From Kiritimatiellia bacterium (GTDB taxonomy: Bacteria > Verrucomicrobiota > Kiritimatiellia > RFP12 > UBA1067): a DNA stretch of 61,413 nt. How positions within the stretch are numbered: position 1 is the stretch's first letter; each line of letters opens with the position of its first letter. Position numbers and translations under genes: made by a program. This document shows positions 1 through 8,357 of the stretch, one piece after another. The stretch covers positions 1-61,413 of the forward strand of contig JAGBZX010000025.1 of assembly GCA_017628025.1 (NCBI GenBank). Direction: 5' to 3'. The notes under the pieces are model-generated. The model searched no databases and was not told the DNA's origin. It was given only the letters and a program-made list of their open reading frames with translations.

Positions 1-861
1 ACCTTGTATTATTTTTGAAAGGTCTTCAAACTCACCAGCAAAATTAGAATCTGGATAATGATCAAAATCATCATATTTAATTGTCAATCTACCATTTTTA
101 CGCATCTGAGGCAATCCGACCCAAGGCGATGCAATATAAAAAGATTGCTTGAGACCAAACAATTCCTTTAAAGGCGCATCGGGAATTAACTTACGTGTTG
201 TTATTTCTTCATGCACACCATAAACCAATTCTGCATCCTCAGAGAATAAGACTTTTTCAGCATCCATAAGCCACTTTATATCATAATACTCCATGGAAGT
301 AGCATAATTATAAGCATCATATATCCTTGCATTTAAATGCTCTTTATACTTACTAAGGCATTCTGTATATTTTGACCTGAATACTTGATATACCTTCTCT
401 AAATCAGCAGCATAATCTTCCCCTATACCCACGGCGCGAATAAATGCTGCGTATGCTCTTTTCGAGTCGCCTTGAGACATTTTTTCTTTATACGATTCAA
501 ATACTTTTTTTGTATATACATCAAGTTTTTCTAATACTTCACAAAACTGTCCACGCCCTAATTCATTTTCAAAATCCGAAGATGCCATCTCTACAGAAAG
601 TAACGATAACATTTCACCCCTATTCAACCGTTCACCAAGTATTGCAATCTGAGTAGCCCAACCTTTAAGAGGACGCCACGCGATCAACTCAAGCAATAAA
701 GGATATCTCGCGCTCAGGTTAACAATCTGATGTATCATTCTAGCCAATGTACTCTTACCAGAGGCATTAATGCCAGATAATACCGTTATTGAATCTAATT
801 CAATATCAGCACTTTTTATAGCCTTACTATTTACCACAGACAATTTATATTTTGCGCTCAT
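1..861 (-). CDS. P-loop (AAA/ABC-like) ATPase, N-terminal 287 aa; C-terminus lies beyond the window edge
   Basis: Frame is open from ATG (complement 859-861) to position 1. It is missing from the ORF track only because no stop lies in the window. Walker A GINASGKST at aa 30-38. Preceded by promoter-leader module A1. Confidence 0.6.
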   Translation of the reverse strand, partial: MSAKYKLSVVNSKAIKSADIELDSITVLSGINASGKSTLARMIHQIVNLSARYPLLLELIAWRPLKGWATQIAILGERLNRGEMLSLLSVEMASSDFENELGRGQFCEVLEKLDVYTKKVFESYKEKMSQGDSKRAYAAFIRAVGIGEDYAADLEKVYQVFRSKYTECLSKYKEHLNARIYDAYNYATSMEYYDIKWLMDAEKVLFSEDAELVYGVHEEITTRKLIPDAPLKELFGLKQSFYIASPWVGLPQMRKNGRLTIKYDDFDHYPDSNFAGEFEDLSKIIQG

Positions 862-920: not shown

Positions 921-1011
921 ACTCTCGCCCCATGGGGTATGTAGCCGAATACCTCATCACAAATTTTTGAATTATTCTATTGTGCCTCTTCAACACAACG
1001 ATATTATACCA
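921..1011 (-). promoter_or_regulatory. Promoter-leader module A1 (TGGTATAAT extended -10 at 1003-1011; palindrome GCCCCATGGGG at 927-937) driving the ATPase gene
   Basis: Aligns by eye with modules at 3866-3974 and 4296-4403. Conserved core is GGNATATTCGGCTACATNCCCCATGGGG. Confidence 0.55.
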
Positions 1012-1087
1012 TTTAGACGATAAAATTACCACAATTACAGTAATTTTAACCAATAAAAACCTATTAGGATCAAATAGTAATTTTTTA

Positions 1088-1115
1088 GGTGAAGGTCAAA
1101 GGTGAAGGTGAACAG
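1088..1115. repeat. GGTGAAGGTCAAAGGTGAAGGTGAACAG low-complexity boundary repeat (copy 1)
   Basis: Near-identical copies at 1712-1740 and 4101-4127, plus an inverted copy at 4253-4279. Confidence 0.8.
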
Positions 1116-1120
1116 TGGCG

Positions 1121-1141
1121 GTTTTTAGCCGTGTAGAGGTG
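1121..1141. repeat. Left arm of the inverted repeat bracketing the GxxExxY fragment (GTTTTTAGCCGTGTAGAGGTG)
   Basis: Its reverse complement is found at 1454-1473 (CACCTCTACACGGCTAAAAC), 20 of 21 matched. Confidence 0.85.
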
Positions 1142-1409
1142 GAGATGGGGAGAAGTTTGGGACCACTGTGCGTGTTTCGAATCGATATGATCCAAAGTTT
1201 ATGAGAAGAGCCTTCTTGAATCCTGTAATCTTCAAATAGTTAAGAACTTGCGCGTAATGCTCTCCGGCAAGTGCACTGACCGCCTTTAGTTCCAGGATCA
1301 ACTCTCCGTTCACCACCAAATCCGCAAAATACTCGCCCAACAAATACCCATCCTCATCTCTGACCTCAAGTTTCTTCTGTGATTCTACACAATATCCCGC
1401 TTTCTCCAA
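1125..1409 (-). pseudogene. GxxExxY protein (PD-(D/E)XK nuclease-fold family) fragment, N-terminally truncated
   Basis: Translation contains ...GEYFADLVVNGELILELKAVSALAGEHYAQVLNYLKITGFKKALLINFG. It lacks about 35-40 N-terminal residues typical of the family. The 'start' is TTG, the upstream frame hits a stop within 60 nt, and the C-terminal tail is encoded by the inverted-repeat arm. Confidence 0.6.
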
Positions 1410-1453
1410 CCGGTGCTTCCGGCATTCTCCATCTCTTATTCCCTTCCCTTCTA

Positions 1454-1473
1454 CACCTCTACACGGCTAAAAC
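1454..1473. repeat. Right arm of the inverted repeat bracketing the GxxExxY fragment
   Basis: Reverse complement of 1121-1141. Confidence 0.85.
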
Positions 1474-1483
1474 AGACAACGCT

Positions 1484-1543
1484 CCGTACGTCGCAATAAC
1501 ATTGAGGAATATTCGCCGATTAGCTGTCATCTTAGGGGTTGGG
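1484..1543. repeat. Repeat module X (copy X1), about 58 bp
   Basis: Aligns with 1619-1676 and 4037-4095. The minus strand reads CCCAACCCCTAAGATGACAGCTAATCGGCG..., a vestigial ATG-initiated stub. Confidence 0.7.
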
Positions 1544-2472: not shown

Positions 2473-2682
2473 CTATCGTTCTTTTGACTTCAGTTCCGCT
2501 ATAACATTCTCTAGCACATACCCATCACTCATCAACTGAAGACCATACTTTGCATCTGACAATTGCTTGTATGTTTCTGTTGAATAGAAGATATCCAACG
2601 CCTTCTCTTCATCAACTTCAAGCGCTGAAGCAAGGGCCATAATGATTCTCGCCTGCTTTCTCCATAAAACATTGTCACGCAT
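2473..2682 (-). CDS. DUF3791-like small protein
   Basis: 69 aa. The pattern ...ALDIFYSTETYKQLSDAKYGLQLMSDGY... is typical of DUF3791 partners of DUF3990. It starts 8 nt after the DUF3990 stop, with GGTG in the gap. Confidence 0.55.
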   Translation of the reverse strand: MRDNVLWRKQARIIMALASALEVDEEKALDIFYSTETYKQLSDAKYGLQLMSDGYVLENVIAELKSKER

Positions 2683-2690
2683 AATACACC

Positions 2691-3185
2691 TTATAAAATT
2701 TCAGCTCCAATAAACTTAAGACATGTATCAATCACAACTTGAGAACGAATGCATATCTGATGATTTACCTTTTTATAAATTAATTGGCCCAATGCCTGCT
2801 CTGCTGTTATTATGCCATTTTCATAATCTTCGACGGTATCAATTACATTATCATTAGCAACGCCACCTTCTATCACATCGTACTGAAGCTGCAATTCTCC
2901 TCCACGCCTACAATCAATCACATAATTTAGCCATTCCATATCATACGCATCAAACACCTTATAACGCGCACCTAACATATTCTTGGCCATCGCTTCATTA
3001 AAATCATAAGTGTTCAACACTGGCTTACCATATCGAGTACGACTTGCAATAACCCTAGCCCAAGATTTAGCTTGATCTGAAAGACTTGAGAGATAGAACC
3101 CTCTACCAAAATCCACCCTGGCGCGCCCAGCTTCCACCTTTGGATTCGCTACACTAACATCAGACCCGTGAAACAACTGAATCAT
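2691..3185 (-). CDS. DUF3990-like protein (possible ADP-ribosyltransferase-fold enzyme)
   Basis: Begins MIQLFHGS. Motifs are LFHGS (aa 4-8), GRGFYLS (aa 27-33) and DVIEGG (aa 103-108). I moved the start to ATG 3185, which forms an ATGA overlap with the stop of the upstream ORF. Confidence 0.65.
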   Translation of the reverse strand: MIQLFHGSDVSVANPKVEAGRARVDFGRGFYLSSLSDQAKSWARVIASRTRYGKPVLNTYDFNEAMAKNMLGARYKVFDAYDMEWLNYVIDCRRGGELQLQYDVIEGGVANDNVIDTVEDYENGIITAEQALGQLIYKKVNHQICIRSQVVIDTCLKFIGAEIL

Positions 3186-3460
3186 ACACCGGCCTCCCAA
3201 TTTTTCAAAGTTGTTATGGTATCTTCTGCAACCCAATCGAGACTTTGGGTATGCAAGTCATCATACATTGCGATTAAACGATTGTGAATCAAGTCTTGAG
3301 CTTTGAGCCGATCATGCATAACCTGACCCGAAACACCAAGCTTTCGAGCGCCACTCTCAATCGCCATCACAGCAAAGTGTATGCGCTTATGTACATCAGA
3401 TTTATTGAACGCATTCATACCCATAACTCTCCCTTCATCCAATCTTGTAAATCCCATCAA
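3182..3460 (-). CDS. DUF3791-like small protein (start may be the internal ATG at 3424)
   Basis: 92-aa ORF. ...FAVMAIESGARKLGVSGQVMHDRLKAQDLIHNRLIAMYDDLHTQS... resembles DUF3791. Translationally coupled to DUF3990. Confidence 0.55.
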   Translation of the reverse strand: MMGFTRLDEGRVMGMNAFNKSDVHKRIHFAVMAIESGARKLGVSGQVMHDRLKAQDLIHNRLIAMYDDLHTQSLDWVAEDTITTLKNWEAGV

Positions 3461-3544
3461 TCCTGTAAAACCCTCTCATCAAACAATCTCCAATTCCTCT
3501 ATTCACCTTCACCTCTGAAAAACTCGAACTCCAACTCCTACTAT

Positions 3545-3712
3545 CTATTTCCCGTTCGGATTTACCGAAGTGACTGTACCATCTGGTAATTGCCAAACAA
3601 GTTTTCCATTCAAGGAATAAACATTCGCTATTCCCTTGCGCCGATTTTCTTCCTGCGCAAGTTGAACGGCTTCAGATATAATTCGATATAACTTTGTAGT
3701 AATCTCGCTCAT
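3545..3712 (-). CDS. Small hypothetical protein, 55 aa (MSEITTKLYRIISEAVQLAQEENRRKGIANVYSLNGKLVWQLPDGTVTSVNPNGK)
   Basis: Below the ORF-track length cutoff. Strong SD AAGGAGG 6 nt upstream. Its ATG overlaps the TGA of the preceding micro-ORF (ATGA). Confidence 0.45.
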   Translation of the reverse strand: MSEITTKLYRIISEAVQLAQEENRRKGIANVYSLNGKLVWQLPDGTVTSVNPNGK

Positions 3713-3831
3713 AAATCCTCCTTAAATTTCAAATACAATTCTTCTGACAATATCAATGCGTCATCACTTTTATGACCTTCTGCTACAACGACAATTGCAC
3801 CTGCAAGTATATATAATTTCGGCGTTACCAT
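3709..3831 (-). CDS. Micro-ORF, 40 aa (MVTPKLYILAGAIVVVAEGHKSDDALILSEELYLKFKEDL)
   Basis: First ORF after promoter-leader module A2. Preceded by GGAG-rich leader sequence and coupled to the 55-aa ORF. Confidence 0.3.
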   Translation of the reverse strand: MVTPKLYILAGAIVVVAEGHKSDDALILSEELYLKFKEDL

Positions 3832-3865
3832 TCTTCAACTCCATTCTTAACTCCATTACTCCAAA

Positions 3866-3974
3866 CTCCCCCACTTCTCAACATATTCCACCACATGGGG
3901 TATGTAGCCGAATATCCCATTACAAACTTTTGATTTCTATTATCACATCTCTTTAACACAACATTATTATATCA
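3866..3974 (-). promoter_or_regulatory. Promoter-leader module A2 (TGATATAAT at 3966-3974; degenerate palindrome CCACATGGGG at 3891-3900)
   Basis: Aligns with A1 and A3. Sits upstream of the micro-ORF pair. Confidence 0.55.
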
Positions 3975-4036
3975 TTTTATGTAACTTTTTTGTTACTTTT
4001 TACACTAAGCACCACATCCACGCTTCCAAACTCAGA
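3975..4036. repeat. Repeat module Y (copy Y2)
   Basis: Aligns with 1553-1618. Confidence 0.7.
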
Positions 4037-4095
4037 GCGTATATCGCAATGATGTTCAAGATTTCTGGCGGTTAGAAGTCATTTTAGGGGTTAGG
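4037..4095. repeat. Repeat module X (copy X2)
   Basis: Aligns with 1484-1543. The ATG stub is degenerate here (ATGACTTCTAACCGCCAGAAATCTTGA). Confidence 0.7.
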
Positions 4096-4100
4096 ATTTA

Positions 4101-4127
4101 GGTGAAGGTCAAAGGTGAAGGTGAACA
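4101..4127. repeat. Left arm of the inverted repeat bracketing the four-helix-bundle fragment
   Basis: GGTGAAGGTCAAAGGTGAAGGTGAACA. The reverse-complement-like arm is at 4253-4279. Confidence 0.8.
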
Positions 4128-4252
4128 AAGGTGATTGTCATTAATGCGAAGCGCTCATCTAAAGGAAATTTCTTAATTTCCTCATACACGAGCCCCACAA
4201 GCTCAACCGATTTTTGCCAGACTATTAATTTTCTATAACCAAAATCTTCCAT
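4109..4252 (-). pseudogene. Four-helix-bundle protein (23S rRNA intervening-sequence protein / Avd-like family), N-terminal fragment only
   Basis: MEDFGYRKLIVWQKSVELVGLVYEEIKKFPLDERFAL matches the characteristic N-terminus of the family. The frame then runs into the boundary repeat and stops after 47 codons. Confidence 0.6.
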
Positions 4253-4279
4253 TGTTCACCTTCGCCTTTCACCTTCACC
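4253..4279. repeat. Right arm of the inverted repeat bracketing the four-helix-bundle fragment
   Basis: TGTTCACCTTCGCCTTTCACCTTCACC, an imperfect reverse complement of 4101-4127. Confidence 0.8.
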
Positions 4280-4295
4280 TCTACCACCCAACTCC

Positions 4296-4403
4296 ATCAC
4301 TCCCTCACTTCTCAACATATCCCGCCCCATGGGGCATGTAGCCGAATATCCCACTCTCGAATTGTTTTGAGTTTTCTCTCTCATAACGCTTACATTAATA
4401 TCA
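4296..4403 (-). promoter_or_regulatory. Promoter-leader module A3 (TGATATTAAT at 4394-4403; perfect 12-bp palindrome GCCCCATGGGGC at 4324-4335)
   Basis: Aligns with A1 and A2. Sits upstream of the four-helix-bundle fragment. Confidence 0.55.
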
Positions 4404-4489
4404 TTTTTTGTATTTTTTTGAAAGTTTCCTCCTCCACCTAACCTTGCACCTAACCTTGCCTTGGAAGAAAATTTCATGTCCCTTTTCTT

Positions 4490-4518
4490 AAAATGAGAAT
4501 TATGTGCGGAAAATTCTT
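4490..4518 (+). repeat. AATGAGAA motif copy M1 (AAAATGAGAATTATGTGCGGAAAATTCTT)
   Basis: 29-bp motif also at 27922-27950 and 28073-28101, and inverted at 61082-61110. Confidence 0.8.
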
Positions 4519-4715
4519 ACCACATTGCCACTTTTGTGATATTTCGCAAAAATTAACATTATATGCTGATTACTACAAACTATATCGGCTTTATACTGAA
4601 GAGAAAACTCCTCCTAAGCCATCCGCACCGACAGCCGCGCCGTGAGGGTTTTGTTTGCTAGGCTTTCTTAATTCCCACATACAGTGGGATATGACCATTG
4701 GGATCTTAATTTAGA

Positions 4716-6146
4716 TTATTTGCCAAGAATTTTTTCAAAGTATGGCAGAACTGCATCACGCCAAACCGCATAACCCTTGGGGTTAGTATGAAGAAGGTCT
4801 TCCATATAAATCTTAGTGTTGCCCTTCTCATCAACTAGTTTATCGTTAAAATCAACCCAGATCACATTCTCTCCATCAGCAAAAGTTTTAGTAATTTTGT
4901 TAACCGCTTCGTTTCTTATACGGTTTTTATCCTCACTCGACGCGCCGCGAGGAAAGATCGGAAGCAAAAGCACTTTTGCTTCTGCGTGTTTAGAACGAAT
5001 AACCTCTAAAATGCGCTTTGTGCCTTCTGCAATATCACTAGGCTTATCTCTACCATTATTAGTGCCAATCATCAACATGAATAATTTAGCCTTATATCCT
5101 TCAAGCTCTCCATACATCATTCTCCAAAGAACATGCTGCGTGCGATCACTACCATAACCAAGATTAAGAATAGAATACCTTTTCTTTAGTTCTGCAAAAA
5201 GAGCTACGCCTTCACCGCCTTTACGCTCCCAGCGATGCGTAATAGAATCTCCTACAAATACTAAATCATATTCCTTTGGACCATTGATAATTTCATTTCT
5301 CTTTTCAAGTGTGCGAGTTTTCCACCAAGGTGATTTTGCAAAAAAGTTCGTTGGTTTTATCGGCGCAGGAATTTTGTTGGATTTCTTAGGCGCAACTCTA
5401 CCTTTGACGACTGCTCCCTTAGGAGCATTAAGCGCGCGATCTATAATTGGCACCAATTCTTTAGCTATGACTTCATAACCATAATCATTAGGATGAAGAC
5501 GATCATTCATAAATTTCTTTGTATCGCCCTTTTCATCAACAAGCTTATCATTAAAATCACACCAGATTACCTTCTTCCCATCACAAAACTCAACGATAAC
5601 TTCATTTACAACTTTATTGCGCTTCCGAACTGCATCAGAATCTGACGCGCCTGATGGATAGATGGCCGTAAGCAGAATTCTCGCCTCTGGCTGTTTTTGC
5701 TTTATAATTTCGAGGATTTTCTTTATACCATGAATCGTATCAATTGGTGGCTCTTTCTCAAATGAATGGTGACCCGCGTTATTGCATCCAATTAATAAAA
5801 CTACAACCTTTGCTTTGTAGCCATCAAGTTCACGACCTTGCGTTATGCGCCAAATAACATGCTCCGTCCTGTCCCCCGAGACACCTAAATTAAGAGCCTT
5901 GCGAGGGCCATCAACGAAGTTATCTTTCCAAGATTGCTTCTGTTCCCAAAAATGCGTAATACTATCGCCGATAAATACAACATTAGCGACACTGCTAGTT
6001 ATACTATTAAGAAATTGTTCGTGACGCTTTAATTGCCAAGCATCTTTTTTATCACCCCATTTATTAGGTGTTACCGCACGAATATCTGCATGCAATGACG
6101 AAGCTAAAACTAAAGACAAAACAAACACGAAGCGCGTAAAATTCAT
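4716..6146 (-). CDS. Secreted tandem SGNH/GDSL hydrolase (two PAF-acetylhydrolase-like esterase domains)
   Basis: Signal peptide. GDSITHFWE and GDSITHRWE, G(V/Y)SGDRT, IGCNN/IGTNN and LHPN/LHTN blocks each occur twice. Confidence 0.8.
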   Translation of the reverse strand: MNFTRFVFVLSLVLASSLHADIRAVTPNKWGDKKDAWQLKRHEQFLNSITSSVANVVFIGDSITHFWEQKQSWKDNFVDGPRKALNLGVSGDRTEHVIWRITQGRELDGYKAKVVVLLIGCNNAGHHSFEKEPPIDTIHGIKKILEIIKQKQPEARILLTAIYPSGASDSDAVRKRNKVVNEVIVEFCDGKKVIWCDFNDKLVDEKGDTKKFMNDRLHPNDYGYEVIAKELVPIIDRALNAPKGAVVKGRVAPKKSNKIPAPIKPTNFFAKSPWWKTRTLEKRNEIINGPKEYDLVFVGDSITHRWERKGGEGVALFAELKKRYSILNLGYGSDRTQHVLWRMMYGELEGYKAKLFMLMIGTNNGRDKPSDIAEGTKRILEVIRSKHAEAKVLLLPIFPRGASSEDKNRIRNEAVNKITKTFADGENVIWVDFNDKLVDEKGNTKIYMEDLLHTNPKGYAVWRDAVLPYFEKILGK

Positions 6147-6166
6147 AACTGATGCTCCTTTAAAAA

Positions 6167-6240
6167 TGGTTGTCCGGCCTGGATTCGAACCAGGACTAAG
6201 GGTATCAAAAACCCCTGTGCGGCCACTACACCACCGGACA
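6167..6240 (-). tRNA. tRNA-Gln (anticodon UUG), CCA encoded
   Basis: Cloverleaf folded by hand: acceptor TGTCCGG/CCGGACA, anticodon stem GGGGT/ACCCT with loop TTTTGAT, T arm CCTGG-TTCGAAT-CCAGG. Confidence 0.85.
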
Positions 6241-7008
6241 ATCGCAAAGCAATTTAGTGCGTATTATATCATATTCTACACCATTTGGTATAGATAAATT
6301 ATTGGCAAATCCAAAAACCGTAGCTCCAGAGCCTGACATCCTAGCCATTTCTGCGCCCGCGCCTTTAAGAAATTCAAGAGCCTCTCCTATTTTTGGATAC
6401 AAATCTATCGCCGCATTTTCTAACTTATTTGGACCAAAGGACGGTTTGTTTTTATAATTTTGAAACACTAATTTTGTTGACGAATGAACGCGAGGATTGA
6501 CTAAATAAACATCTTTATTAGGCAACTCTGAAGGACGAGAGATACATTCAACTAATTCTCCTCGCCCGCGCATTAAAACTGCAGAACGGTAATGTTGTGC
6601 CAAAACTAGCGCAGGAACATCGCTACCAACAAAAGCGGCTACCTGAGCTAATTCTTCTGGCGAGCATCCTAGGTTAAACATTTGATTTAGTAGCCGCAAG
6701 ACAGCAGCAGCATCTGCGCTACCACCACCTAAACCTCCACCAACAGGAATCTTCTTGTCAACATTAATATCAACTCCACTCATTAGTGAGGAAGGCTTAT
6801 ATGACTTAAGTGCTTGATATGCCTTAATACACAAGTCATCCTTGTAACCCAAATTAGAAGTCACAAGCGAGTCATTTCTTTTAATAATCTCAATAGTATC
6901 ATTAAGCTCGATTGGCAAAACAATCGAGCTTAATTCATGGTATCCATCTTCCCTCACGCCCAATATATCAAGCGTGAGGTTTACCTTAGCATAAGCTAAT
7001 ATTTTCAC
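6226..7008 (-). CDS. ispE: 4-diphosphocytidyl-2-C-methyl-D-erythritol kinase
   Basis: KVNLTLDILGVREDGYHEL and GGGLGGGSADAAAVL GHMP-kinase motifs. 260 aa. Confidence 0.85.
   Translation of the reverse strand: MKILAYAKVNLTLDILGVREDGYHELSSIVLPIELNDTIEIIKRNDSLVTSNLGYKDDLCIKAYQALKSYKPSSLMSGVDINVDKKIPVGGGLGGGSADAAAVLRLLNQMFNLGCSPEELAQVAAFVGSDVPALVLAQHYRSAVLMRGRGELVECISRPSELPNKDVYLVNPRVHSSTKLVFQNYKNKPSFGPNKLENAAIDLYPKIGEALEFLKGAGAEMARMSGSGATVFGFANNLSIPNGVEYDIIRTKLLCDCPVV
6257..6271 (-). promoter_or_regulatory. Stable-RNA type promoter TGATATAATACGCAC for tRNA-Gln, embedded in the ispE 3' coding end
   Basis: Identical 15-mer upstream of rpmJ (54611-54625). The -10 hexamer ends 22 nt before the tRNA 5' end. 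Confidence 0.6.
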
Positions 7009-8357
7009 TTCTGGATCTGGACTTTCTTCATCATTTGCATCATTGCAATACCAGAGGCTGCAGGTCCAATCGCTTTAATTTCATCAGCAGAAATGCGGAT
7101 AAGCGACTCGTGCTTGTTACCCTTCTTCGTTGAATACCACGCTATACCAGCAGAATTATCCTGCGGCAGAACATCAAAGACGAGCGTTTTTATTTGCTCA
7201 CGCTCTGCCGATTCAACATTCTCAAGTATCACGCTCTCCAATGCCTTTAAAAGAGAATTTACCGAAACGAAACCGACGAGATAATTGTTCGCTTTCTGAA
7301 TTTCTGGCAACGTATTTATTAGGCGGCTAGAAATCGCAGCGCTAGGCTTATAATTTCTAACTGTCACGGTCGTGCGCTTCATGGAAGGAGCCTCAACAGC
7401 GGAGGATTTAAGAGCTTCAAAATCAGCACGAAGGACATCGCAATTTACCTTACCACTGCACTTGGCTTCTTTTATGCTCTTAACGCCCGAAAGTAAAGAC
7501 TTGGGGTCTATTGTTATATCAACGAAGCCTTCATTGCATACAAAAGAAATAAACGAAGAAATATCTATGCCATTTTTCTTTAACGTTTCAATGATTTTAT
7601 CGCATCCAACCTTTTTAGAATTAGCCCCCTTATTCATCGCTATCATGTAAAGCGCATCACTGGGGATATTTGAAAGAATTGAATTATCCAACAATTTATC
7701 GCCGATTTTATCTAAGTTTGAACCCTTTACAACAGTCATAAAATGACGAATATCAATGCCAGCGTTCGTCATTTTTAAAGAGAAATCGAAACTATCAACA
7801 TTCTTTAAAAGCTCTGCTTTTGCATGAGAGTTAAGTTCGGACTGCTCTAAAGCACGGCGAGTTACCTTAGCGCGAATGATATCCTTACCAATTTTCTTTT
7901 CAGCTAGCTTCGTGTATTTTAGTATCGCACGAGCACGGCGGGGATCAGATGAAACTCCTACCCAATCTCCTGACTTAGCAAACACTGCATATAATTCATT
8001 GGATACTTTAATAACACCGTTTGACTCTACAGCATCTGGGTTGTTTTGTAAAATTTCAGCCTTTGTAGAGGCAACTGGATAAAGGCAACCGCCGCAAATC
8101 TCACCATGATCAATTATTCCAACAATCATGGCACCGACACCAGTGCGTGACTCGCCGAAAATCATCGCTAAAGGATTGCTAGAGATTGCCTGCGTCGCCA
8201 TCATGCTCAGCATAGGATTACCTAGCATCATACCTAAATTTGAAATATTTTCGACAAGCGTTTGCGTGTCATTTAACTTTACGTAACCTGCCAACTCATC
8301 CTTTGCAGAAAGCTGCAACGAGAAGCAAATCGCGACAAACATTAATATTCTTTTCAT
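7005..8357 (-). CDS. Hypothetical secreted protein
   Basis: 450-aa ORF with a signal peptide and a GGAG SD. ATGA overlap with ispE. No family recognised. Confidence 0.6.
   Translation of the reverse strand: MKRILMFVAICFSLQLSAKDELAGYVKLNDTQTLVENISNLGMMLGNPMLSMMATQAISSNPLAMIFGESRTGVGAMIVGIIDHGEICGGCLYPVASTKAEILQNNPDAVESNGVIKVSNELYAVFAKSGDWVGVSSDPRRARAILKYTKLAEKKIGKDIIRAKVTRRALEQSELNSHAKAELLKNVDSFDFSLKMTNAGIDIRHFMTVVKGSNLDKIGDKLLDNSILSNIPSDALYMIAMNKGANSKKVGCDKIIETLKKNGIDISSFISFVCNEGFVDITIDPKSLLSGVKSIKEAKCSGKVNCDVLRADFEALKSSAVEAPSMKRTTVTVRNYKPSAAISSRLINTLPEIQKANNYLVGFVSVNSLLKALESVILENVESAEREQIKTLVFDVLPQDNSAGIAWYSTKKGNKHESLIRISADEIKAIGPAASGIAMMQMMKKVQIQK

Follow-up and report, generated by a model that had tools for sequence, protein, structure and literature searches.

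Short leader sequences that recruit NusG-type elongation factors are known from E. coli, where the ops sequence in the JUMPStart element (GGCGGTAGnnTG; Rfam RF01707) is the loading site of RfaH, a factor that is, to our knowledge, unknown in the Kiritimatiellia lineage. The heptanucleotide d(GCGNAGC) is a very stable DNA mini-hairpin. A different precedent is offered by T4-type phages, whose promoter-early stem-loops (PeSLs) are reportedly mobile regulatory cassettes that flank the small genes of hyperplastic regions (Arbiol et al., 2010). In Bacteroides fragilis, the opsX elements of the capsule operons, leader elements of about 40 bp in which an RNA pause hairpin is followed by a non-template DNA hairpin 5'-YGCGNAGCR (class-1), are the recruitment sites of the UpxY proteins, which are NusG paralogues (Nat Commun 2024, PMC11685472); the corresponding boxes read ccgcgtagcgca in PSA and CTGCGAAGCATA in PSE, to be compared with GCGGTAGC in E. 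coli ops (PMC11685472). Here we analyze a stretch of 61,413 nucleotides (nt) from a Kiritimatiellia bacterium (contig JAGBZX010000025.1 of assembly GCA_017628025.1; hereafter, the window), in which a module made of a promoter-like element and a predicted leader is repeated three times on the minus strand (m1, m2 and m3), and we show that these repeats are members of a large family whose conserved block resembles opsX.

Results

The original prediction held that three modules on the minus strand of the window form a portable unit of expression placed before unrelated genes, and in this respect it stands. The core TTCGGCTACATRCCCCATGGGG is found at 949-928, 3912-3891 and 4346-4325 (with 0, 1 and 0 mismatches, respectively) and does not occur in any of 100 dinucleotide-preserving shuffles; the three-copy repeat is real and beyond chance. 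In every minus-strand copy an extended -10 element is followed by some 50 variable bases and then by the core GGTATTCGGCTACATRCCCCATG, with the -10-like element sitting 55-65 nt 5' of the core, and repeat detection followed by alignment gives identities of 79% between m1 and m2 across 87 nt and of 91% between m2 and m3 across 55 nt.

Alignment and counting on metagenome contigs reveal that the module is not confined to these three copies. A scan of a genome collection (one genome per species) with the window core returned 14 matches against roughly 17 expected, all of them isolated chance matches within coding regions of unrelated phyla. The search proved too narrow, since the window-type core, with its A in the loop and CATG, is rare, the family consensus differing from it by two bases. 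By contrast with those chance matches, five of the 14 matches retrieved by a pattern scan of metagenomes are real relatives (loci L017, L022, L024, L025 and L029). In L017 and L024 a gene assigned by Pfam to DUF7724 has the core in frame at its front end and is followed by DUF7723 and DUF4160 genes; a protein search with DUF7724 gave 120 homologues, about 85 of which carry the core translated N-terminally as …[MV]RYSAAYPTGAER…, the remainder beginning at the domain. Contigs encoding ten of these homologues supplied 50 further loci (L030-L082) from ruminant and other gut metagenomes, one of them an NCBI assembly that bears the name 'Kiritimatiellae bacterium'. An nhmmer profile made from module copies and run on 393 kb finds 114 instances with 42 distinct cores and varied cargo, and 109 of the 111 matches outside the window have the orientation of the gene strand.

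The cargo differs from copy to copy even within a single contig. In L060, nine module copies lie on the same strand within 13 kb, each with a different cassette behind it: an NTP-transferase, DUF2204, RhuM, a DUF3791/DUF3990 trio that resembles a trio in the window, small open reading frames (ORFs), a DUF7724 operon and a polysaccharide block. Module arrays are one-stranded, and many of them lie inside polysaccharide-synthesis loci. The three repeats of the window belong to a large promoter-plus-leader family of gut and rumen Kiritimatiellia, whose members stand ahead of unrelated accessory cassettes. Separately, in L022 (383-826) a truncated, oppositely oriented thiC-like gene adjoins the module immediately 3' of its box, a joint that represents either a rearrangement or a chimera of low-coverage assembly.

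In the family alignment, conservation is limited to a block of about 40 nt, (A)TGAGGTAT-TCGGCTGC-ATACCCCA-CGG-GCGCGGAGCGTA, the 5' part of which reads (A)TG AGGTAT, and it falls away within a few bases 3' of GCGGAGCGTA, where cargo-specific sequence starts. Within this block, UGAGGUAU can pair with AUACCCCA around the loop UCGGCUGC, giving a GGUAU/AUACC stem that can be extended to 7-8 bp. Among 37 distinct cores, 85% of cells are paired, whereas controls with the partner shifted by 1-3 columns reach 25-59%, and none of 500 shuffles matches the covariation score or the count of double changes. Some changes are compensatory: in L032, L035 and L073, GG/CC is exchanged for AG/CU, and in L074 an A.U pair stands where the GGGA variants have an A.C mismatch. 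At another pair, an A.C mismatch is repaired to G.C in the GGGA and GGAG variants, and the wobbles GGUGU and AUGCC leave the pairing intact. A hairpin in the leader RNA is supported rather than proven, a grade that we adopt because the covariation events are few and the sequences related. The loop UCGGCUGC hardly varies at all, an indication that its sequence is recognized. A pseudoknot between loop and box, judged by eye, was rejected, as a loop variant with CC in place of GG is not accompanied by any compensating change.

This hairpin is not the one that the original prediction had in mind, which was a perfect 12-bp palindrome, GCCCCATGGGGC, read either as the operator of a dimeric repressor or as an RNA hairpin. 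An RNA hairpin is indeed supported, only a different one, with GGTAT/ATACC around the loop TCGGCTGC, and the palindrome itself is perfect in m3 alone (4335-4324), being reduced to 10 bp in m1 (ACCCCATGGGGC) and broken in m2 (ACCCCATGTGGT/CCCCATGTGG). Across the family, the consensus at the site is CCCCACGGGCGC, the outer pairs of the palindrome hold in 2 and 10 of the 37 cores and its central A-T pair in 13 of 37, and its covariation does not rise above that of shuffles; the palindromic-operator reading fails because the pairs are not conserved and do not covary. Likewise, the tail GGATATGTTGAGAAGTGRGGGAG that the prediction attached to the module is indeed common to m2 and m3 and is peculiar to those copies, lying outside the family core.

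Three bases 3' of the hairpin stands the family consensus box, GCGCGGAGCGTA; GCGCGGAGCGUA, at the same distance, includes the mini-hairpin motif GCGNAGC. Among the 42 distinct cores, GC[GT]N1-2AGC occurs at this fixed position in 33, and the stricter YGCGNAGCR in 26. The latter pattern has 151 matches in the 393 kb, 68 of them inside modules, and every one of these 68 lies on the module strand. The family box CGCGGAGCG fits the opsX pattern YGCGNAGCR exactly, and the pyrimidine-then-A 3' of the box also agrees, while a variant box, GCGAGAGC, has a two-base loop, as does E. coli ops; the family box also resembles the E. coli ops site, GGCGGTAGCGTG. The stability of the mini-hairpin is consistent with recognition of the box on an exposed non-template strand. 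A GC-rich insert of about 65 nt (…GGAGGGGAGCCTTGCCGAAGGCGAGCCCGAAGGGCCCGCAAGGGGCC…) is found inside the box in L025 (951-1100), in L060 (~7747-7860) and in the sequences of proteins P0017, P0019, P0090 and P0095-P0101, where a GCGGAG-like repeat stands on either side of it; it resembles either an additional stem or a small insertion element that can form a hairpin and has the box as its target.

The conservation of the block acts on the nucleic acid and not on a peptide. Minor alleles are spread evenly over the three codon positions of the block (56, 53 and 54), the ratio of synonymous to non-synonymous changes (11:38) does not differ from that of the other two frames, and the common codon changes, namely Y to C at two places, R to G, E or K, and P to S, would be severe in a peptide and are mild in the helix; because variation shows no codon bias and the residue changes are severe, we conclude that the constraint lies on RNA or DNA. 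The reading frame is nonetheless open through the block in nearly all copies and often ends just before the start of the cargo or is fused to it, for which reason gene callers extend many proteins through the block. False N-termini containing RYSAAYPTGAER are seen in genes for DUF7724, DUF6922 and YobI-type ATPases (among proteins P0001-P0120 and in L066 at 1091-1504 and 2642-6340), and some false extensions run even through the -10 element (…KWYNI…).

Upstream of the block, most family copies have a predicted -10 element 54-75 nt 5' of the hairpin, that is, the block would lie in the leader between the predicted promoter and the first gene. In L060, seven of the nine copies have a predicted TTGATT or TTGACA followed, after 17 nt, by TAAAAT or TACACT just upstream, and the others have TGGTATAAT; two unrelated promoter types as judged from their sequences, one sigma-70-type and the other with an extended -10, feed the same downstream block. 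Several loosely related types can be told apart in the approximately 50 nt from promoter to block. An inverted repeat read from the sequence, GTAAC-A6-GTTAC (3981..3996, minus strand), covers the -35 region of m2; it is a candidate operator that is also present in L022 and L029, has a 3' arm differing at two of five bases in L024, and is not conserved in the other promoter types. A second inverted repeat, AAAATTAC-N10-GTAATTTT, lies 5' of the m1 -10 element (window 1012-1057) and shares the GTAA half-site of the m2 repeat; the two are possibly candidate operators of one regulator.

Other features recur near these promoters. In at least eight contexts, small XRE-type HTH_3 genes end about 20-50 nt before the next module's promoter (among them L060 3818-4024, 5180-5440, 8288-8548 and 9587-9928; L017 952-1194; L069 1-258; L081 2075-2281), and they may regulate the neighboring module promoter; the window has no XRE-type HTH_3 gene of that kind. 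A motif AATGAGAAT…GCGGAA occurs in three copies upstream of the L029 module (380-660); the window has one inverted copy upstream of m3 (4490-4518).

Turning to the window copies one by one, m1 (921..1021, minus strand; nhmmer family profile E 1.8e-16) has the extended -10 element TGGTATAAT at 1011-1003, a hairpin with 5' arm TGAGGTAT (956-949), loop TCGGCTAC (948-941) and 3' arm ATACCCCA (940-933), and a degenerate ops-like box, GCGAGAGT (928-921), which is one base off the GCGAGAGC form and whose 3' neighbors differ as well. In m2 (3871..3986, minus strand; E 2.4e-13) the extended -10 is TGATATAAT (3974-3966), and the family hairpin is formed by TGGGATAT (3919-3912), a loop (3911-3904) and ATACCCCA (3903-3896). 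Finally, m3 (4307..4404, minus strand; E 5.7e-15) has an imperfect -10 element, TGATATTAAT, with one extra base (4403-4394), and a family hairpin of TGGGATAT (4353-4346), loop (4345-4338) and ATGCCCCA (4337-4330). The three -10-like elements are thus where they had been predicted, with TGATATTAAT one base longer.

Both m2 and m3 carry GGRATATGTTGAGAAGTGRGGGAG in place of the family box, and this sequence continues into the GA-rich low-complexity repeats that flank a four-helix-bundle gene fragment behind m3. Because GGRATATGTTGAGAAGTGRGGGAG has replaced the box, a longer hairpin is possible in these two copies, in which ATATTCGGCTACAT pairs with ATGKGGYGGRATAT and G.U pairs are included; in m2 it is a 14-bp alternative of ATATTCGGCTACAT (3915-3902) with ATGTGGTGGAATAT (3896-3883), and in m3 it joins 4349-4336 with 4330-4317, all on the minus strand. 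The m2 fold has a z-score of -2.34, equaled by 4 of 200 shuffles, and two of the four differences between m2 and m3 swap Watson-Crick for wobble pairs, which hints, weakly and from two sequences only, at upkeep of the longer hairpin at the RNA level. As single sequences, the three window leaders fold no better than shuffles.

The upstream half of m2 is near-identical in L022 and L024, where the box is intact (GGCGGAGCG in L022) or one base off (GCGGAGTG in L024), and on this account m2 looks like a derived copy. To judge from their sequences, the window copies are eroded or variant members of the family that have kept the promoter-like element and the hairpin and lost the intact box, so that they may be either working promoters with a variant hairpin leader or decaying remnants.

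The genes placed behind the window copies are where the original prediction had put them. The m1 cargo (1..861, minus strand; ATG at 861) is a partial P-loop ATPase of AAA_15/ABC type that runs past the edge of the window (Pfam AAA_15, E 2.1e-6, which is under the curated cutoff). The m2 cargo is an overlapping pair of micro-ORFs of 40 and 55 amino acids (3545..3831, minus strand) without a family match in Pfam, and it is cleanly missing from the related contig L029. The m3 cargo (4109..4252, minus strand; Pfam 23S_rRNA_IVP) is a 47-codon fragment of a four-helix-bundle (23S rRNA intervening-sequence (IVS) protein) gene, flanked on both sides by GGTGAAGG-type inverted repeats that are 91% complementary. 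Cargo consisting of micro-ORFs without homologues and of a gene fragment fits the view that m2 and m3 are decaying.

Further observations concern the repeats around these copies. Fragments of GxxExxY (PDDEXK_3) and four-helix-bundle genes, bracketed by long inverted repeats of the GTGTAGAG… and GGTGAAGG… types, lie directly after modules in the window (1088-1475 and 4101-4280), in L060 (~4160-4200), in L065 (~200-260) and in L042 (~620-660), and in other contigs these arm sequences (GTGTAGARCGTGTAGA) turn up again immediately 3' or 5' of modules; from these arrangements, IVS-like elements appear to insert preferentially into leaders. Unitig depth in run X1, the likely source sample, reaches 50-148x over m2, m3 and the adjoining repeats (window 3781-4620) compared with about 15x in the flanks, and a depth of 82x over the 15x baseline suggests that that genome or community holds more than three copies of these repeats. 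A further repeat, termed 'module X', is found at window 1484-1543, 1619-1676 and 4037-4095. The copy at 1490-1470 holds ACGGAGCGTTGTCTG, a remnant of the family box with its usual GCGTTGTC continuation, and a contig of run X5 has a complete family core (…GGCTGCATACCCCACGGGGCGA) joined exactly at window 1484; the 'vestigial gene start' at that place is therefore partly a broken module.

Discussion

Among the closest described counterparts of the module is opsX of Bacteroides. Both elements are about 40 nt long and occupy the leader between promoter and first gene, both place an RNA hairpin before a box that fits YGCGNAGCR (CGCGGAGCG in the present family) and is followed by a pyrimidine and then A, and both occur in several copies per genome, many of the copies reported here being in polysaccharide loci. 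They differ in that the first operon gene in Bacteroides is the cognate NusG paralogue whereas no UpxY-like gene stands behind the element described here, in that the hairpin lies 3 nt from the 12-mer instead of abutting it, and in that the loop is conserved across copies whereas Bacteroides sites differ from one another for specificity. The present element, moreover, heads small defence, toxin-antitoxin and unknown cassettes and not just sugar genes, belongs to another phylum, and has a putative pausing activity.

The resemblance to E. coli ops is looser. Both are short leader boxes with GCG..AGC arms, found on the sense (non-template) strand before horizontally acquired and polysaccharide operons, and in both cases a single sequence is common to many operons; the variant GCGAGAGC even shares the GCG-NN-AGC form with GCGGTAGC. 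The family does not carry the 12-mer GGCGGTAGnnTG itself, however, the consensus GCGCGGAGCGTA and the variant GGGGCGAGAGCGTA being similar to it only, and the usual form of the family has a one-base loop and no Rfam match. With the PeSLs of T4-type phages the module shares a promoter and stem-loop before each small accessory cassette, the one-strand array and a cassette content that varies among relatives, whereas its context is chromosomal and bacterial and a conserved box follows its stem-loop. Recombination between copies of the PeSL type is suggested, and no more than suggested, by the variable junctions seen in metagenome contigs. A phage origin was considered and rejected, given that only one provirus-labelled contig with the module and one chance match were found. 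Integron attC sites and clusters of the CALIN type are also one-strand arrays of small variable cassettes with a repeated, hairpin-capable element between them, but the module alignment contains neither R''/R' cores (RYYYAAC/GTTRRRY) nor a long imperfect palindrome, the element lies 5' of its cassette together with a promoter whereas attC lies 3', and the Pfam lists of the loci contain no integrase in their flanks.

By analogy with these systems, we tentatively favor the reading that the block works like an ops or opsX site, the module being a portable promoter joined to a leader at which polymerase would pause and a NusG-type antiterminator would load. The sigma-70-type promoter would fire, and about 50 variable bases would be transcribed, followed by the 40-nt block. 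RNA polymerase would then pause after some 60-100 nt, at or near GCGGAGCGU, with the nascent hairpin stabilizing the pause, and a NusG-type factor would read the GCGNAGC box on the non-template strand, and perhaps the hairpin too. The factor would stay on the polymerase and suppress termination through the cassette, and perhaps through the whole array. Whereas the family and its portability, the conservation at the level of nucleic acid, the covariation of the hairpin and the sequence match to opsX are observations, we infer pausing, the factor and anti-termination from the analogy.

Several results weigh against this reading. None of the three window copies has an intact YGCGNAGCR box, and some arrays, the window included, lie beside housekeeping genes and not beside polysaccharide genes. 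Searches with Rfam models, JUMPstart (RF01707) included, gave no match at gathering score in the window and none at E up to 5 on the 13.8 kb of L060 that hold its nine copies. No NusG paralogue (PF02357/KOW) appears in the 10-kb flanks of about 50 loci, as judged from precomputed Pfam lists that cover the flanks only, and tblastn on the loci with E. coli RfaH (an approximate sequence) had a best E of 0.31; the proteins of 183 and 605 amino acids that follow the first module of some arrays are neither NusG-like nor matched in NCBIfam. A stand-alone gene for the factor may lie elsewhere in the genome, as is the case with RfaH. The likeness to ops was noticed post hoc, the chance expectation for a degenerate 9-mer in a 40-nt block being a few in a thousand, and the covariation rests on few independent events among related sequences. 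A strongly conserved loop is unexpected for a simple pause hairpin, and the metatranscriptome contigs have very low coverage and no usable 5' ends, being indistinguishable from DNA carry-over.

Other explanations have to be set against these considerations. The least probable is that the palindrome GCCCCATGGGGC is an operator at which a dimeric repressor blocks elongation at about +50: the symmetry of m3 and, to a lesser extent, of m1 speaks for it, yet it is lost in m2 and in the family consensus, and the pairs that an operator would need are neither held nor covarying across cores, so that we regard this as extremely improbable. Hardly better placed, and in our view very unlikely, is a leader peptide, whereby the block would be part of a translated upstream ORF (M-x10-15-[MV]RYSAAYPTGAER...) coupled or fused to the cargo gene. 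Such an ORF would account for a frame that is open from an ATG near the transcript start in almost all copies, for stop codons that often lie a few bases from the cargo start (TGAcATG), for the in-frame fusions to DUF7724, DUF6922 and YobI-type ATPase genes and for the N-terminal extension with which some 85 of the 120 DUF7724 homologues are annotated. It is at odds with the even variation over codon positions, with a synonymous fraction no better than in the other frames and with residue changes that are drastic for a peptide and conservative for a stem; besides, L025 has no start codon, and the Pfam DUF7724 domain begins after the extension, where many homologues themselves begin.

Two further alternatives carry more weight, even if we consider each of them unlikely to be the primary explanation. 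The module could be a homology block or site for the exchange, deletion and duplication of cassettes, with expression being secondary. Every array has its modules at the borders of cassettes; in L022, L024, L029 and window m2, upstream halves that are nearly the same continue into different downstream sequence; contigs of other samples join the module to different flanks and show joints between repeat copies; related haplotypes differ by whole cassettes (L030 versus L032); and L029 lacks the micro-ORF pair. Against recombination as the main role, the Pfam lists of the loci show no recombinase gene consistently adjacent, the block is kept far more strictly than homology for recombination needs and has an internal structure with covariation, its constant spacing downstream of two promoter types that are not related speaks for a role in the transcript, and metagenome joints at repeats can be assembly artefacts. 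Recombination is, moreover, compatible with an ops-like leader and may well be true in addition to it. Alternatively, and with about the same low likelihood, some other factor, be it an RNA-binding regulator, an XRE-linked system or an RNase or processing enzyme, could bind the loop of the leader hairpin and control the stability or translation of the mRNA, the GCGGAGC box being part of an RNA site. This would suit the near-invariant loop UCGGCUGC, the wobble changes that point to pairing at the RNA level, the longer RNA-type hairpin with G.U pairs kept by m2 and m3, the XRE-type HTH genes that end just 5' of many modules, and cargo start codons that often lie 5-60 nt past the block. On the other hand, no candidate RNA-binding protein has been identified, there is neither an Rfam match nor a pseudoknot or second covarying helix, and this reading does not explain why the box matches the opsX DNA-hairpin consensus exactly.

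If the ops-like reading is carried one step further, each accessory cassette would carry its own promoter and hairpin-ops loader as a licensing tag, read by a single NusG-type factor encoded elsewhere, while the repeats would also drive shuffling. We put this forward as a speculation that is, on balance, doubtful. Under it, cassettes for defence, toxin-antitoxin and sugar-modifying functions would stay expressed and termination-proof wherever they are inserted, and an RfaH-like regulon, of which the phylum has no described example, would have been disseminated as a mobile module.

These findings have consequences for annotation and for genome mining. Many DUF7724, DUF6922 and other database genes carry a false N-terminal extension (…RYSAAYPTGAER…) that is really leader sequence, and the 40-nt block provides a sequence handle for finding Kiritimatiellia accessory genes in metagenomes. 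While ops and opsX-type leaders are known, we found no paper among those searched that links ops-type elements to Verrucomicrobiota or Kiritimatiellia, and what is new here is an ops/opsX-like leader as a mobile unit attached to single accessory cassettes. If the core does load an elongation factor, control by hairpin plus ops would extend to the Kiritimatiellia, and ops-type control would be a mobile unit on single small cassettes and not only a property of long sugar operons. This would, in turn, offer a simple account of how foreign, low-GC genes escape silencing in these abundant uncultured gut bacteria.

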